From contig JANMKN010000045.1 in NCBI GenBank assembly GCA_031372065.1, positions 1 through 15,706 on the forward strand: DNA of 15,706 bases, read 5' to 3'. Source of the DNA: Abditibacteriaceae bacterium (GTDB taxonomy: Bacteria > Armatimonadota > Abditibacteriia > Abditibacteriales > Abditibacteriaceae). How positions within the stretch are numbered: position 1 is the first letter of the stretch; the number at the start of each line of letters is the position of its first letter. Below are positions 4,192 through 9,847 of the stretch, one piece after another. Made by a program: the position numbers and the translations under genes. A model generated the notes under the pieces. It made no database searches. It was not told the DNA's origin and saw nothing but the letters and a program-made list of their open reading frames with translations.

Positions 4192-4223
4192 AAAAGTCCA
4201 CGCGAAAATTCGCGTGGACTTTT
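4192..4223. terminator. Bidirectional intrinsic terminator
   Basis: Perfect inverted repeat AAAAGTCCACGCGAA-AA-TTCGCGTGGACTTTT between convergent mscL and the diguanylate cyclase, giving U-tracts on both strands. Confidence 0.85.
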
Positions 4224-4237
4224 GTTTTCAATTGGTT

Positions 4238-5179
4238 TTACAACGCTTCGATAGTCAGCACTTCGCGCACGATGGCACGATTGCGCCCCGCATTTTTGGC
4301 TTCATAAAGGCACTCATCGGCAGCGTGCAAGAAGCGGTTGGCGAGTTCGGTCATGCCGGGCGCTGTTTTTTCGCTTTCTTGGTCAGAGGGCGGCAACGGC
4401 ACCGTGACTGCGCCGATGGAAACGGTAACGGGAATTCGTTGCTCGACGCTAAAAATTTCCAAGGCTTCGGTGGTGGCACGCACTTTTTCCGCGAAGATTT
4501 TCGCACCTTCGATATCGGTTTCCGAAAGCACTGCCGCGAACTCCTCGCCGCCCAAACGCCCGACTTTGTCGGTGCGGCGCGAAGAATGTTCCAACACCCG
4601 CGAGAAGGCTTTCAAAACCACATCGCCGTTGGCATGACCCCAAGTATCGTTAACCCGCTTGAAATGATCGAGGTCGAAAAGCAAAACCGAAACGGGATGC
4701 CCAAAGCGACGTGCCCGCCAGAGTTCTTCTTCGAAGTGCGCCATGAAGCCGCGCCGGTTGGTCAGACCGGTTAATTCGTCGGTGATAGCTAATTTTTCGA
4801 GTTGTTCCTGCAATTTACGCACGCGCACTGCCGAACGCACGCGCGCCAGCAATTCGGGCACGGCAAAGGGCTTACAAATGTAATCCACGGCCATTTCGAG
4901 GCCGTGAACGCGGTCTTCCATCTCATGTTGGGCCGTCACGAAAATCACCGGCACATTCGCAAAATTTGGGCGCGACTGCATTTCATGCGCCACTTCGTAG
5001 CCACTCATGCCGGGCATCATCACGTCCAACATCACCAAGTCAGGCGCTTGCTCTAAAATGATTTGCAACGCCTCGTGCCCGGTGTGCGCCGATATGACAG
5101 TGTAGCCATCCATGCGCAATGTCAGCGACGTGAGAGTATTGATTTCGGGGTCGTCTTCGGCCACTAAAATTGTAGTCAT
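4238..5179 (-). CDS. Response-regulator diguanylate cyclase (REC + GGDEF)
   Basis: N-terminal receiver domain (ILVAEDD, LDVMMPGMSG, KPF). GGDEF domain has DLDHFKRVND..GH..GD, an RRTD I-site five residues before GGEEF, and 'LYEAKNAGRNR'. Confidence 0.95.
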   Translation of the reverse strand: MTTILVAEDDPEINTLTSLTLRMDGYTVISAHTGHEALQIILEQAPDLVMLDVMMPGMSGYEVAHEMQSRPNFANVPVIFVTAQHEMEDRVHGLEMAVDYICKPFAVPELLARVRSAVRVRKLQEQLEKLAITDELTGLTNRRGFMAHFEEELWRARRFGHPVSVLLFDLDHFKRVNDTWGHANGDVVLKAFSRVLEHSSRRTDKVGRLGGEEFAAVLSETDIEGAKIFAEKVRATTEALEIFSVEQRIPVTVSIGAVTVPLPPSDQESEKTAPGMTELANRFLHAADECLYEAKNAGRNRAIVREVLTIEAL

Positions 5180-5209: not shown

Positions 5210-5725
5210 TCATTTGGCGTTCAACAATTTGAGGTAGTTGGTTTTGAGTTGGGCCATTGCTTTTACATCAAAACCATCATGCACTTCCTGCACAATTCCT
5301 TTGTGGTCTACCACGATTGTCAAGGGAATTCCCTCAATGAACCGACCAAACTTGTTCTGCGTGTCTATAGCAATGGGATAATGTGTTTTGTTGCGCGCTT
5401 GAAAATCCTTCAAAGTGCTGATCTTATCGCCTTGCAGGGCAATTCCCAAAACCATGCCACCTTTGCTTTTGACCGCCTGCTGCACCTTTTGCAAATGCGG
5501 AGCCTCCGCATTACAAGTGCCTCAGCCAGACGAGAAAAACGTGATCCAATAAGCCTTGTTTTTCAATTTGGCGGGCGAAATTGCCTTGCCTTCAATGGTT
5601 TTCAGCGTGAAAGGCGGAAACTTCTGCCCTTTTTTGAAAGTTGCAGCGTGAGCGATGTCATTTGTGGCGGTGCAGGAAAGCAAAAGCGCTAACACGAAAA
5701 AAAAGCGAAAACAATGAAAAGTCAT
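5210..5725 (-). CDS. Exported TlpA/redoxin-family thioredoxin-fold protein, probable selenoprotein (Sec at codon 68, UxxC motif)
   Basis: ATG 5725 has an AGGA RBS and a signal peptide (..LLLSC..AHA). Then 'GQKFPPFTLKTIEGK', 'YWITFFSSG'-TGA(5522-5524)-'GTCNAEAPHLQKV', continuing in frame to 'GIPLTIVVDHKGIV' and a stop at 5210. 171 codons with read-through. Confidence 0.85.
5482..5520 (-). promoter_or_regulatory. Putative bacterial SECIS stem-loop
   Basis: Directly 3' of the UGA: GCACTTGT-AATGCGGA-GGC-TCCGCATT-TGCAAAAGGTGC. An 8-bp perfect upper stem with a G-led apical loop begins after 17 nt from the UGA, and the lower stem can extend. Confidence 0.7.
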
Positions 5726-5787
5726 CTGGAATCCTTTTGTAAGTCTCTTCCTTACCAAAATTCGCGCCAAAGCATGACGCGAACGAT

Positions 5788-6528
5788 TTAGCGTAGCCGC
5801 TCGGCGCCATCAACGGGCAAAATCGCGCCGGTGATAAAGCCCGGCCCAAACAGTAAGAACCGCGCGGTTTCGGCGATTTCTTCAGGCGTGCCGATTCTTT
5901 GCAGCGGAATACGCGCGATTAACGAGTCTTCGTCATCGCCTTCGCCCTGCGTTTGTGACGGCAACAAAATTGTGCCCGGACAAATGCAATTGACGCGAAC
6001 GTGCGGCGCCAGCGCTTTCGCTAAAGCCTCCGTGAGCATCACTACGCCCGCTTTGGAAACGCAATAGGGAATGTAATTTTTCAAAGGCCGCAAACCGTGA
6101 ATATCAGCAAAATTTAAAATGCTGCCGCGCTTTTGCCCCACAAACAGGTCGCCAAAGGTTTTGCTCATCAAATACGGCGCTTTGAGATTGGCCGCGATAT
6201 GATCGTCGAAGTCGCTTTCGTTCATCACATCAAACGGCGTGCGCCGAAAAATCGCCGCGTTATTGACCAAAGCCGTGACCGAATCGAATTTTTGTAAAAC
6301 GCCATCCGCTAATTTTTCGACATCATCCGCGCGGCTCACATCGACCTGAAACGCCGCAAATTTCCCCTGCGGCGCCATTTTGCGCAGTTCTTTGACCAAT
6401 TGCTGTGCTTCATCTTGTGAGTTGCGATAGGTAATCGCCACATTTGCGCCCGCCTGCGCACAATTGAGCGCAATCGCGCGCCCAATACGTTTGGCACCGC
6501 CGGAGATGAGAACGGTTTCGTTTTGCAT
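5788..6528 (-). CDS. Short-chain dehydrogenase/reductase, pteridine reductase (FolM/PTR1-like)
   Basis: 'ISGGAKRIG', 'VNNAAIF', catalytic 'YCVSK', 'VNCICPG', 'FITG..LPVDG'. Start probably ATG 6528 (MQNETVL); GTG 6582 is an alternative but lies in a REP-like element. Confidence 0.85.
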   Translation of the reverse strand: MQNETVLISGGAKRIGRAIALNCAQAGANVAITYRNSQDEAQQLVKELRKMAPQGKFAAFQVDVSRADDVEKLADGVLQKFDSVTALVNNAAIFRRTPFDVMNESDFDDHIAANLKAPYLMSKTFGDLFVGQKRGSILNFADIHGLRPLKNYIPYCVSKAGVVMLTEALAKALAPHVRVNCICPGTILLPSQTQGEGDDEDSLIARIPLQRIGTPEEIAETARFLLFGPGFITGAILPVDGAERLR

Positions 6529-6531
6529 TTC

Positions 6532-6598
6532 GTAGAGCCACGTCGGGAACCCTTTGGGTGTTGCGTATTCTGTTTTGGACACGTCTGTGTGTCCCTAC
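6532..6598. repeat. GTAG-type REP-like inverted pair
   Basis: Minus strand GTAG-GGACAC-ACAGAC-GTGTCC (6598-6577) includes the upstream gene's TAG stop. An inverted degenerate partner GTAGAGCCAC starts at 6532 on the plus strand. Confidence 0.45.
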
Positions 6599-7399
6599 AC
6601 TTCCAAACTCAATCCGTCATACGCCAACTCGATGCCGGGCGGCAGGTTGGAATTGACGAAATTGTAATCCACATTATGCGTGGTGTGCGTGAAAAACGCA
6701 CGGCCCGGCTTGAGTTTTTCCGTCGCGGCGCAGGCTTGTTCGATATTGAAATGCGTGGGATGCGGCTTTTTCGTGAAGCGCGTCCAAAACCAGCACATCG
6801 GCATTGCTCATCGGCGCCCACGATTCATCGGGAATATTCGAGCAGTCTGTCGCGTAAACCAAAGTGCGCCCGTTGCAATCGAAGCGATACGCAAAGATTT
6901 CGCGCTGCCCATGCCAGATGGGAATCGGCGTGATTTTCACGTCGCCAATTTCAAAAGACTGATAATCTTGCGCAATGTGAGCGGTCAGGCGTGGAAAGCC
7001 GCCGCGTTCACGGTCTTGCACAAAAGCGTAATCGAAAATCGCTTCCAAGCGCCCCGTTGTTTGCTCGTTGCCCCAACCGTGAATATAACCCAAACGGTCA
7101 GAAAGCGGGCGCAAATCGTCAAGACCAATGATGTGATCGTTGTGGTCATGCGTCCACAGAATGCCCGAAATATAATGAACGTGCGCCCGCAAAAACTGTT
7201 GGCGCAAATCGGGCGTGGTGTCCACCAAAATGAGGGTGCGTTCGGCGTGTTCTTCGCTTTCGTGGCAACAATCGCCTGCCACCAAAATGGAACACCGCAA
7301 ACGCTTATTGCGCGGGTCGCTGGAGCGACAGACTTCGCAATCGCAGCCGACGAACGGCACGCCATAACTGGTGCCGGTGCCGAGAAACGTTAAACGCAT
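6595..7399 (-). pseudogene. PhnP-like metallo-beta-lactamase-fold phosphodiesterase with a single-base frameshift (pseudogene or sequencing error)
   Basis: MRLTFLGTGTSYGVP..CDCEVC and THDHNDH (HxHxDH) in one frame; the conserved tail 'KPHPTHF..FTH..H..AYDGL' is in another. Removing one base from the T5 run at 6767-6771 gives LDALHEKPHPTHF. Confidence 0.8.
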
Positions 7400-7472
7400 A
7401 ATGAGTAATGAGTGACAAGTAACAAGTGAGGAGTGAAGTTTACTCATTACTCATCACTATTTGCTGATCACT
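7400..7472. repeat. Inverted heptamer tandem-repeat element A
   Basis: aatgagt aatgagt gacaagt aacaagt gaggagt, then the reverse-sense units actcatt actcatc actattt gctgatc act. Confidence 0.8.
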
Positions 7473-8021: not shown

Positions 8022-9847
8022 CGCACCGCGTTGGCAATGTGCTTGGCGGAAATGCCGTAGGCGTCCAGCAGTTCGGCAGGTTTGCCGGAGGCGGGCATTT
8101 TCCTGATGCACAAATGGGTGATTTTGGGCAGCGTTTCGAGGCCGCTTTCGACTAATGCCGACAAAACGGTTTCGCCCAAACCGCCTTGTGCCCAATGGTC
8201 TTCGGCGATGATAAGATGACCAGTTTCTTCGGCAGCTTTGCGCAGTGTGTTCAGGGTGGTTTTGTTGAGCGGCTTGAGCGAATAAAGGTCAATGACGCGG
8301 ATTTTGGTGCCGCTTTCGGCCAATTCGTCGGCGGCTTTGATGGCTTCGTGCAGCGTGATGCCCGCGCCGATAACAGTGGCTGCGTCGCCTTTGCGCACAG
8401 TTTTGCAGCCGCCAATCGGGAATTTCTCGGTTGATTTATAAAGCACCGGCGTTTTTTCGCGCGTTGAACGCAAGAAAACGATGCCTTTCAAATCTTTCAT
8501 CGTTTCGACTAAAACCGCTGTGGAGGTGGCATCGGACGGATACAAAACTGTCGAGCCATGCACCGAACGGAACATCGCGAGGTCTTCCAAAGCCATCTGC
8601 GAGGGGCCATCTTCGCCAATCGAAACGCCAGCGTGTGAGCCGCACAATTTGATGTCGGCTTGCGAAATGGCACCCATGCGAATTTGGTCAAAGGCGCGAG
8701 AGAAAAACGCGGCGAAGGTGGAGCAATACGGCTTTTTGTTGCGGTTTTGCAAGCCGACAGCGGCGCTGATGAGTTGCTGCTCGGCAATGTAGATTTCAAA
8801 AAAGCGCTCCGGCACTGCGCGCTTGATGTATTCCGCATACGTTGAGTTGGAAACTTCGGCATCCAGCACGACAACATCCGCGTTGCGCGCGCCGACGGAT
8901 TCGAGCGCGTCGCCATAAGCCTGACGCGTGGCGACCACATCGCCGACTTTGTATTCGGGCAGCGGCACCTCTTTGGTGCGCGGCGTTTTGGGCTTGTTGA
9001 GTTTCGGTTTGGCGACTTTTATAACCATGTGGCTTTCGCCGCCCAGTTCTGCAATCGCGGTGGCGGCTTGTTCTTCGTTCATCGCTTTGCCATGCCAGCC
9101 GTCTTTGTCGGCGGTCAGCGAAGCGCCGTGACCTTTTTCGGTTTTGGCGATGATGCACACCGGCTTGTCGCTGCCTTCGACTTGTGCGAACGCGGCGTCA
9201 ATTTCTTCGATGTTGTGGCCGTCCACTACGATGGCGTTCCAGCCAAAGGCTTCGGCGCGCGCTTTATAAATTTCCGTATGCCAGCCCAGCATGGTTTCGC
9301 CGCGCTGACCCAAACGGTTGACATCAATAATCGCCACGAGGTTGTTCAATTCGTAGTGCGAAGCGATTTCAAAGCCTTCCCACACGCTGCCTTCAGCCAT
9401 TTCGGAGTCGCCCAAAATAACCCAAACTTTGAAAGGCAACTTGTCCAGATATTTGCCGGAAATGGCATCGCCAACGCCAACGCTAAGGCCTTGACCAAGC
9501 GAACCTGTGGCGGCTTCGACCCATTTGATGTCGGGCGTGGGATGACCCTCGAAAATCGAGCCGAATTGACGCAGTGAGAGCAGTTGTTCATCGCTGATTG
9601 CGCCAGCGGCTTTGTAGGCCGAATATAAAAGTGGGCAGGCGTGGCCTTTGGAAAAAATCAGGCTGTCGTTGTTGGGGTTTTCGGGCGCATCGAAATCGTA
9701 GCGCAGATATTTCGCCATCAAGACGGCCATTAAATCGGCGCCCGACATCGAAGAAGTCGGATGCCCTGATCCGGCTTTGGTGGTGCAGCGAATGCTGTCC
9801 ACGCGCAATTGGTTCGCAAGTTGTTTCAAGTCCAGTGATTTAGCCAT
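8018..9847 (-). CDS. tkt: Transketolase (animal-TKT-like sequence type)
   Basis: 'GSGHPTS', 'FSKGHA', 'ATGSLGQG', ThDP motif 'GDSEMAEG...N', 'IAEQ', 'SIGEDGPSQM'. ATG 9847 is preceded by AGGAG. Confidence 0.93.
   Translation of the reverse strand: MAKSLDLKQLANQLRVDSIRCTTKAGSGHPTSSMSGADLMAVLMAKYLRYDFDAPENPNNDSLIFSKGHACPLLYSAYKAAGAISDEQLLSLRQFGSIFEGHPTPDIKWVEAATGSLGQGLSVGVGDAISGKYLDKLPFKVWVILGDSEMAEGSVWEGFEIASHYELNNLVAIIDVNRLGQRGETMLGWHTEIYKARAEAFGWNAIVVDGHNIEEIDAAFAQVEGSDKPVCIIAKTEKGHGASLTADKDGWHGKAMNEEQAATAIAELGGESHMVIKVAKPKLNKPKTPRTKEVPLPEYKVGDVVATRQAYGDALESVGARNADVVVLDAEVSNSTYAEYIKRAVPERFFEIYIAEQQLISAAVGLQNRNKKPYCSTFAAFFSRAFDQIRMGAISQADIKLCGSHAGVSIGEDGPSQMALEDLAMFRSVHGSTVLYPSDATSTAVLVETMKDLKGIVFLRSTREKTPVLYKSTEKFPIGGCKTVRKGDAATVIGAGITLHEAIKAADELAESGTKIRVIDLYSLKPLNKTTLNTLRKAAEETGHLIIAEDHWAQGGLGETVLSALVESGLETLPKITHLCIRKMPASGKPAELLDAYGISAKHIANAVR

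Follow-up and report, generated by a model that had tools for sequence, protein, structure and literature searches.

The window, a 15,706-nt stretch of DNA from an Abditibacteriaceae genome assembly (G000; 6.14 Mb, 93.9% complete), carries on its minus strand a short gene running from 5725 to 5210. ORFs 5522-5770(-) and 5210-5494(-) lie in a common frame and are separated by one TGA, as a preliminary description of this DNA had reported, and the codons quoted there match the sequence exactly; that description did not name the strand. Reading through from the ATG at 5725 gives 171 codons with a single internal TGA as codon 68 (5524-5522), and yields both the 171-aa length and the later GIP motif that had been described. 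The gene, its parts and its conserved surroundings are as follows.

5210..5725, minus strand: predicted selenoprotein coding sequence, a TlpA/ResA-like redoxin of 171 aa, with its true TGA stop at 5212-5210
5645..5725, minus strand: predicted cleavable signal peptide, aa 1-27, ending in AHA, a pattern drawn from the alignment, hydropathy and low pLDDT over aa 1-25
5522..5524, minus strand: TGA within the frame (codon 68), where CxxC has its first Cys; likely selenocysteine (Sec, U), based on the sequence, ortholog alignments and a bridging contig
5513..5515, minus strand: Cys71, second residue of UxxC and predicted resolving Cys, invariant in alignments A3 and A4
5490..5515, minus strand: bSECIS-type hairpin, with an upper stem-loop at 5511-5495 (7 bp), loop GGC at 5504-5502 and a short lower stem
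5324..5326, minus strand: Pro134 of GIP, at the thioredoxin-fold cis-Pro position, invariant in A3 and A4 and assigned by sequence position, not geometry
5732..5735, minus strand: AGGA, ribosome-binding-site-like, upstream of ATG 5725
5755..5769, minus strand: upstream element TGGC-N7-TTG(G/A), shared with G001, G002 and also G003, which lacks the gene
5788..6582, minus strand: upstream SDR gene, pteridine-reductase-like, a conserved neighbour marking the syntenic site
4238..5179, minus strand: response regulator-GGDEF gene, 30 nt past the stop, a conserved neighbour that also persists in genomes lacking the redoxin

The read-through protein contains the local sequence WITFFSSG-U-GTC-NAEAPHL, with a UxxC motif (U68-G-T-C71) followed by E74, P76 and, further on, GIP with P134. 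Its residues 31-154 match Pfam Redoxin (64.3 bits against a cut-off of 26.6) and AhpC-TSA (59.1 bits against 26), and both matches cross the TGA. A contig from a second sediment sample, X2, bridges the codon (5474-5624; depth 2.2) with zero differences from the window, which speaks against the base-call error that the preliminary description had allowed for. The window may derive from X1 (depth about 8), which is not independent.

To the extent that homologs can be aligned, the TGA is a conserved feature of this gene. Across 60 relatives, each of the 7 top-scoring matches other than the gene itself holds one in-frame TGA, mapped to codon 68 in 7/7, with conservation on both sides, which is the pattern predicted for a true Sec codon in the preliminary description. 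All five syntenic orthologs (G001, G002, G005, G010 and the metagenome locus L106; identity 35-82%) carry TGA at this position, and not the TGC or TGT in all close relatives that would have spoken for a Cys gene. Their shared gene order is tkt, ADC-like, MBL hydrolase, SDR, redoxin and then the response regulator-GGDEF gene where the contig reaches it, the G001 contig stopping short of tkt and the G010 contig short of the GGDEF gene. L106, which has the TGA and the same neighbours as the other orthologs, was one of two loci from a metagenome pattern scan; the other, L105, is the protein of G005 and was left out of the counts. One of the two patterns used in that scan spelled Cys and so was unable to match TGA. 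A pattern scan of GTDB returned nothing beyond the G002 gene again (L055) and one weak partial match.

Public protein sequences present this gene in shortened form, as had been anticipated for standard annotation. All 7 matches from a single-query search and the 25 best matches from a profile search (one being the fragment encoded in the window itself) begin no earlier than residue 71, past the TGA and without the active site, and the annotation is here corrected. The corresponding genes presumably carry the TGA as well. No close full-length Cys version was found within the best 25 profile matches; the first full-length Cys protein ranks 26th, at ~34% identity. Source labels on two close database matches read Abditibacteriaceae/Abditibacteriota.

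We evaluated the hairpin past the TGA against the bSECIS consensus in section 5 of PMC13188914, which asks for a loop of 3-9 nt with G in its first two positions, a stem of 4-16 bp, a distance of 16-37 nt to the UGA and MFE <= -7.5. The hairpin lies 17 nt past the TGA, overlapping the codons of E74-A75-P76, and agrees with the consensus on every point: its loop is 3 nt with G first, its stem 7 bp, and its upper stem-loop alone folds at -8.3 kcal/mol (-12.0 with the lower stem). Compared with shuffles its stability alone is unremarkable (z -0.35 to -1.06), and the support for the hairpin is its position and covariation, not its stability. In a gap-free alignment of 23 homologous TGA sites, scored in a register derived from this gene, 84.6% of cells were paired with 32 two-sided changes (0/500 shuffles), and controls slid along the same sites gave 32-55% paired, below the true register. 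Weaker results came from counting pairs that show a two-sided change (27/500) and additional types of pair (228/500). When the same structure was imposed on 16 homologous Cys sites, pairing was at shuffle level; at least 6/7 pairs of the upper stem form at 19/23 TGA sites versus 0/16 Cys sites. The codon at +6, the Glu of Glu-x-Pro, is GAG in 22/23 Sec sites versus 3/16 Cys sites. A SECIS built into the Glu-x-Pro codons is new here.

These 23 TGA and 16 Cys sites are from phylum relatives, among the matches listed, the survey being of homologs within the phylum, with distant members elsewhere outside its coverage. Rows dropped before counting were L050 antisense and L049 off-frame, both spurious, and L042, which has GCA at the site; L032, L036, L045, L051, L052, L054, L066 and L067 had no mapped site. 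The exact geometry recurs at 5 of the 179,998 TGA triplets of G000, two of them at Cys-aligned redox sites, a descriptive count given that the register comes from this gene. A loose genome-wide SECIS scan passed 2030/38728 TGA sites and was too noisy; a subsequent coding-potential filter gave leads but missed SelD, so that the list of G000 selenoproteins is incomplete.

The presence of such a gene had been taken to imply that the host uses Sec. Consistent with this, selA, selB, selC and selD are all present in G000, each above its curated cut-off. The tRNA-Sec (75.9 bits) is the sole one of 12 candidates over the RF01852 cut-off, and has an 8-bp acceptor stem, a UCA anticodon, a long variable arm and a G discriminator. 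The selD gene itself carries one in-frame TGA (motif CAG-U-ASK). Together these data indicate that the TGA of the redoxin gene is very likely read as Sec in a 171-aa UxxC protein.

On contig C287 (19659-28329) selA, selD and selC adjoin each other between the only detected dsbD, a single DsbD_TM match that is a full-length DsbD adjoining selC, and, on the other side of selA, a divergent ccmE-ccmF-ccmH cluster (ccmF and ccmH by Pfam, a ccmE-like ORF by eye). The selA gene adjoins ccmF in G003 and G005 too. Two long-arm, poorly paired ARAGORN calls at G000:C201:3020-3116 and 8582-8674 (Ser-CGA, Ile-AAT) are probably false tRNAs. A search of G000 for a Sec-formate dehydrogenase gave four molybdopterin oxidoreductase matches, none (0/4) with a stop inside the matched stretch.

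Within the family, the distribution of the gene follows that of selA. A profile of the five orthologs found the gene in 4/26 family relatives, all four of which hold selA sequence, intact in three and as pieces below cut-off in G002; selA was also found in G003 and weakly in G007, with no hit in 20. No redoxin ortholog was found in any of the 21 family relatives without a convincing selA hit (0/21). These co-occurrence counts come from relatives that share kinship, and several of the genomes are incomplete. G002 holds the TGA gene though its selA is fragmentary; other genes of G002 at this locus are also frameshifted, and its broken selA is likely an assembly fault. At the syntenic site of G003, G006, G011 and G012 (4/5 checked) the GGDEF gene comes directly after the SDR gene and no Cys version intervenes, and the fifth site, that of G007, has a different neighbour. 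As G003 has selA but lacks the redoxin, the gene is dispensable. In this family, the gene is thus found only alongside selA sequence, though selA does not require the gene. Abditibacteriaceae can be added to the map of Sec users, in a patchy pattern where loss of the gene tracks loss of selA.

To evaluate the likely function of the protein we examined its predicted fold and N-terminus. An AlphaFold2 model (9-row alignment, U modelled as C) has a pLDDT of 86.2 and a disordered N-terminus, with low pLDDT over aa 1-25. Foldseek and a PDB sequence search both place ResA at the top, followed by proteins of the DsbE/Etrx/StoA type and, lower, Bcp; the best Foldseek match has E 1.3e-13 and TM 0.70 by query. 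The predicted fold is therefore ResA/TlpA-like, and the ExP and cis-Pro position of TlpA-type proteins are invariant in the alignment. The original proposal of a UxxC selenoprotein in the TlpA/ResA fold is thus upheld by the Pfam scores, the ResA match and the covarying hairpin. The NCBIfam equivalog models score below their cut-offs (ResA 63.2/170, DsbE 28.1/123.15 and TlpA 24.8/230 bits).

All aligned orthologs have an N-terminal hydrophobic segment that ends at an AxA-like site, and the protein is likely exported with its signal peptide cleaved; secretion, also proposed in the preliminary description, is accordingly rendered here as probable export. A lipoprotein was considered, and is probably not what this gene encodes since Cys18 is not kept in the orthologs. 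The mature domain is basic (pI about 9.8).

Periplasmic TlpA-fold proteins take electrons from DsbD or CcdA, and DsbD and a TlpA-fold protein form a textbook pair. These considerations allow us to propose a working cycle. SelB and Sec-tRNA would bind the hairpin, leading to insertion of Sec68, and the signal peptide would then be cleaved. The selenolate of Sec68 would attack a substrate disulfide, Cys71 would resolve the intermediate to a selenenyl-sulfide, and DsbD, the only one detected in G000 and encoded beside selC, would re-reduce it. The substrates would most likely be oxidised envelope proteins. The DsbD link draws on knowledge of the family and on gene neighbourhood on another contig, and G000 also has several Cys-type TlpA-like paralogs, which could be the partners of DsbD instead; we lean, by a little, towards a DsbD-fed periplasmic disulfide reductase. 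Overall, the best explanation of the locus is a SECIS-decoded, 171-aa UxxC selenoprotein acting as an exported periplasmic disulfide reductase, to which we assign a probability of roughly 0.6.

The strongest alternative accepts the selenoprotein and makes it mainly a selenol peroxidase acting directly on periplasmic peroxides. Table 1 of PMC13188914 lists the PF00578 UxxC family as 'Prx-like', several sources call the database fragments 'peroxiredoxin', Bcp peroxiredoxins appear among the lower Foldseek matches, and the other candidate selenoproteins of G000 are mostly of peroxide type (Prx TxxU, AhpD-like). However, the PxxxTxxU motif is absent (ITFFSSGU), the NCBIfam Bcp model gives 33.8 against a cut-off of 140, ResA and DsbE structures rank first, and the TlpA-type features noted above are invariant, making a primary peroxidase role unlikely, if still one to be reckoned with.

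A dedicated reductase of cytochrome c maturation, of the CcmG/ResA type, appears less plausible again. The closest structures are ResA, the ccmE/F/H cluster beside the sel genes has no CcmG among the ORFs examined, and selA keeps its place next to ccmF in two relatives. Against this, the ResA and DsbE scores lie far below cut-off (63 vs 170 and 28 vs 123 bits), the redoxin gene sits on another contig, unlinked to ccm, and the N-terminus looks cleaved and not anchored. Because G003, G006, G011 and G012 have ccmF without the redoxin, by both syntenic site and profile search, and because several Cys-type paralogs exist in G000, it is improbable that the protein serves as a dedicated CcmG.

It is also very improbable that the UGA is recoded as cysteine through the same SECIS by a SelC*/tRNA-ReC, giving an ordinary CxxC protein. 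Such tRNA-ReC-like genes were reported in 5/5 Armatimonadota genomes with UxxU hydrogenases, according to PMC13582414, and a tRNA could be missing from an assembly that is 93.9% complete. Nevertheless, the single tRNA over the RF01852 cut-off has the Sec-type features given above, G000 has one tRNA-Cys (default threshold) and one cysS, and selA and selD are intact. A search of G000, at that completeness and, for tRNAs, among candidates above the default thresholds, found neither a second SelC-like tRNA with Cys identity nor an extra CysRS.

More remote still is a role in which the redoxin passes its redox state to the downstream response regulator-GGDEF protein for c-di-GMP control. In G000, G001, G002, G005 and L106 the genes are neighbours on one strand, with 30 nt between them in G000, but the GGDEF gene stays without the redoxin in G003, G006, G011 and G012, and the redoxin is probably exported whereas its would-be partner has only receiver and GGDEF domains. 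Finally, a nonsense mutation or base-call error, leaving a pseudogene or an ordinary Cys gene, is scarcely credible: although the only cysS of the assembly holds an unexplained TGA and depth in X1 is low (about 8), the redoxin TGA recurs in five other syntenic copies down to 35% identity with conserved flanks and a covarying hairpin, it is present in the second sample's contig, and the top 25 database matches hold no close full-length Cys version.

That cysS, the only one found in G000 (C200:13946, minus strand; L079, L100), has its in-frame TGA at a position that codes for Ile or Leu in four relatives, and no clear SECIS accompanies it. Among the matches listed, no near-identical contig piece covers the codon. 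The cysS TGA is possibly an assembly error, and given this case stray TGAs may occur in the G000 assembly.

We compared the protein with its homologs in a tree of 39 domains (midpoint root, without representatives from outside). A branch with support 92/75 (not starred) has the Sec rows to one side of it, and a single change suffices. The five orthologs placed in the tree group together with 100/100 support, and a long stem leads to this group. A lineage-specific clade exists, but the marks that the preliminary description proposed for a distinct subfamily, Gly before U and the UGTC motif, were rejected. The ortholog motifs are SGUGTC, SGUGAC, SGUGSC, STUGTC, STUGAC and STUGGC, with the residue after UG varying; Gly precedes U in the three members of the genus and recurs on a separate branch, while the other three orthologs have Thr. 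Across the 23 Sec rows the residue before U is G in 9, W in 6, T in 4 and Y in 4, compared with W in 16/16 Cys rows; non-Trp residues thus occur in 17/23 Sec forms vs 0/16 Cys forms, and the wider pattern is Trp loss in Sec forms. The low pKa of Sec may relax the need for Trp. Several phylum members carry many Sec redoxins (L026, L050, L058-L064, L068), with at least 7 sites in G049; some of these proteins are fused behind long N-terminal domains, and most keep the same SECIS register.

The protein shares the xxC-xx-E-x-P and cis-Pro position with ResA (Bacillus), DsbE/CcmG and TlpA, its top matches. It differs from them in having Sec for the first Cys, in lacking the Trp of WCxxC, in scoring below the NCBIfam cut-offs, in a signal that is apparently cleaved with no membrane anchor, and in lying outside a ccm cluster. 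Two other Sec models, NF041054 (ResA-like WAxxUGC) and NF053656 (TUGYCR), also describe Sec with Gly directly after it in a TlpA-like or thioredoxin fold, but the query is below both (31.2 vs 300 and 17 vs 100) and its motif is UGxC, not UGC. The catalogue PMC13188914 also has a UGC-containing TlpA family. The protein probably works like ResA/TlpA and is a member of the UxxC redoxin selenoproteins, while lying outside the ResA, DsbE, TlpA, WAxxUGC and TUGYCR models by cut-off.

We take Abditibacteriaceae to belong to Armatimonadota, and on this placement Sec use in the same phylum has already been published. Chthonomonas calidirosea is scored Sec-positive with 3 selenoproteins (PMC5029168), and Sec hydrogenases and tRNA-ReC-like genes occur in Armatimonadota (PMC13582414). 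The kind of protein is likewise already catalogued, as UxxC selenoproteins of PF00578/PF08534/TlpA type. Table 1 of PMC13188914 holds 119 selenoprotein families, including PF00578 UxxC/UxxU, PF08534 UxxC and cd02966 UxxC, 'predicted with high confidence', and the tables of PMC1794560 list Prx-like thiol:disulfide oxidoreductase selenoproteins in several anaerobes. The catalogued families PF00578, PF08534 and cd02966 have in common with our protein the Pfam domains, Sec as the first residue of UxxC and a coding-region SECIS. In contrast to those families, compared here by their catalogue descriptions, the present gene belongs to a lineage clade without Trp before U and encodes a basic mature domain. 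In the largely open-access literature searched, we found no report of Sec use in Abditibacteriaceae; the clade may already be listed in supplements of the deep-Sep and groundwater-MAG studies cited in PMC13188914. What is new here is Sec use in Abditibacteriaceae together with the lineage-specific clade.

By itself the gene reveals no new mechanism. The 23 Sec and 16 Cys homologs nonetheless provide a test bed for asking how conserved codons come to accommodate a coding-region SECIS, and whether the Trp of WCxxC becomes unnecessary once Sec is present. In PMC13188914 no member of the PF00578, PF08534 or cd02966 UxxC families is marked as experimentally verified, and this small single-domain protein is an easy assay target among these predicted UxxC TlpA/redoxin families. 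A broader model can be put forward only tentatively. In it, a lineage-specific exported selenoenzyme would be the terminal reductase of a periplasmic DsbD-to-Sec relay in a family not reported to use Sec; the selenoproteome, without a Sec-formate dehydrogenase, would be made up of envelope, peroxide, metal-binding and signalling proteins, a Sec-GAF histidine kinase among them; and the redoxins of the phylum would stem from one Cys-to-Sec switch that co-opted Glu-x-Pro codons as SECIS, with the active-site Trp then relaxed.

The kinase named in this model is a GAF-HisKA-HATPase protein at G000:C371:3386-4618 (minus strand; TGA at 4369, NTY-U; loci L085, L086, L087 and L121). Its TGA falls at a conserved GAF Cys in G000, G002, G003 and G100, where a hairpin follows at the same (SECIS) spacing, while Cys is present in G006, G018, G021 and G023, where selA was not found; 9/301 genomes were matched, and the copy in G001 ends before the TGA site. 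We found no GAF or kinase entry in the 119-family table of PMC13188914, and no paper in the literature search. This kinase probably represents a selenoprotein family not described before, and its novelty seems greater than that of the redoxin.

Further candidate Sec genes were observed in G000. An AhpD-like/peroxidase-related enzyme at C129:12505 (minus strand) is over the TIGR01926 cut-off, has CFY-U (CxxU) and carries a perfect hairpin of 7 bp whose register is that of the redoxin hairpin. Two genes belong to the AhpC/TSA family (C351:59316, minus strand, and C355:33290, plus strand), one encoding a peroxiredoxin-like protein of two domains (FTGG-U; hydrophobic segment at the N-terminus), the other having RGEF-U-PTT; the AhpC/TSA candidate motifs are TxxU in a Prx and UxxT in an AhpC/TSA protein. 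At C193:787 (minus strand) a MerP/CopZ-like HMA protein with an N-terminal hydrophobic segment has GMH-U-PVGC in place of the metal-binding motif. A frame at C260:601 (plus strand), which we take to be glycosyltransferase-like, is flanked by coding-like sequence and has YG-U-NTGV ahead of a stable hairpin, with no Pfam or NCBIfam hit. A redoxin paralog at C210:27676-28062 (minus strand; TCPWC) is broken by one TAA and is probably a pseudogene or error.

Several smaller observations concern the surroundings of the redoxin gene. The upstream element TGGC-N7-TTG(G/A) has a near-identical second copy on G000:C207, and resembles the sigma-54 -24/-12 consensus with a non-canonical -12, as a putative site of that type. 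A sigma-70 promoter scan returned 0 sites, and terminator-like sites were at chance level (8 vs 9.3). A perfect 14-bp inverted repeat at window positions 4192-4223, between the convergent mscL and response regulator-GGDEF genes, is likely a bidirectional terminator. The MBL-fold hydrolase gene (6595-7447, minus strand) shifts from one frame to another close to the C-terminus (ORFs 6674-7447 and 6595-6804); the hydrolase is a single ORF of 264-267 aa in G002, G005 and G010, and the frame change is likely an indel in this assembly.
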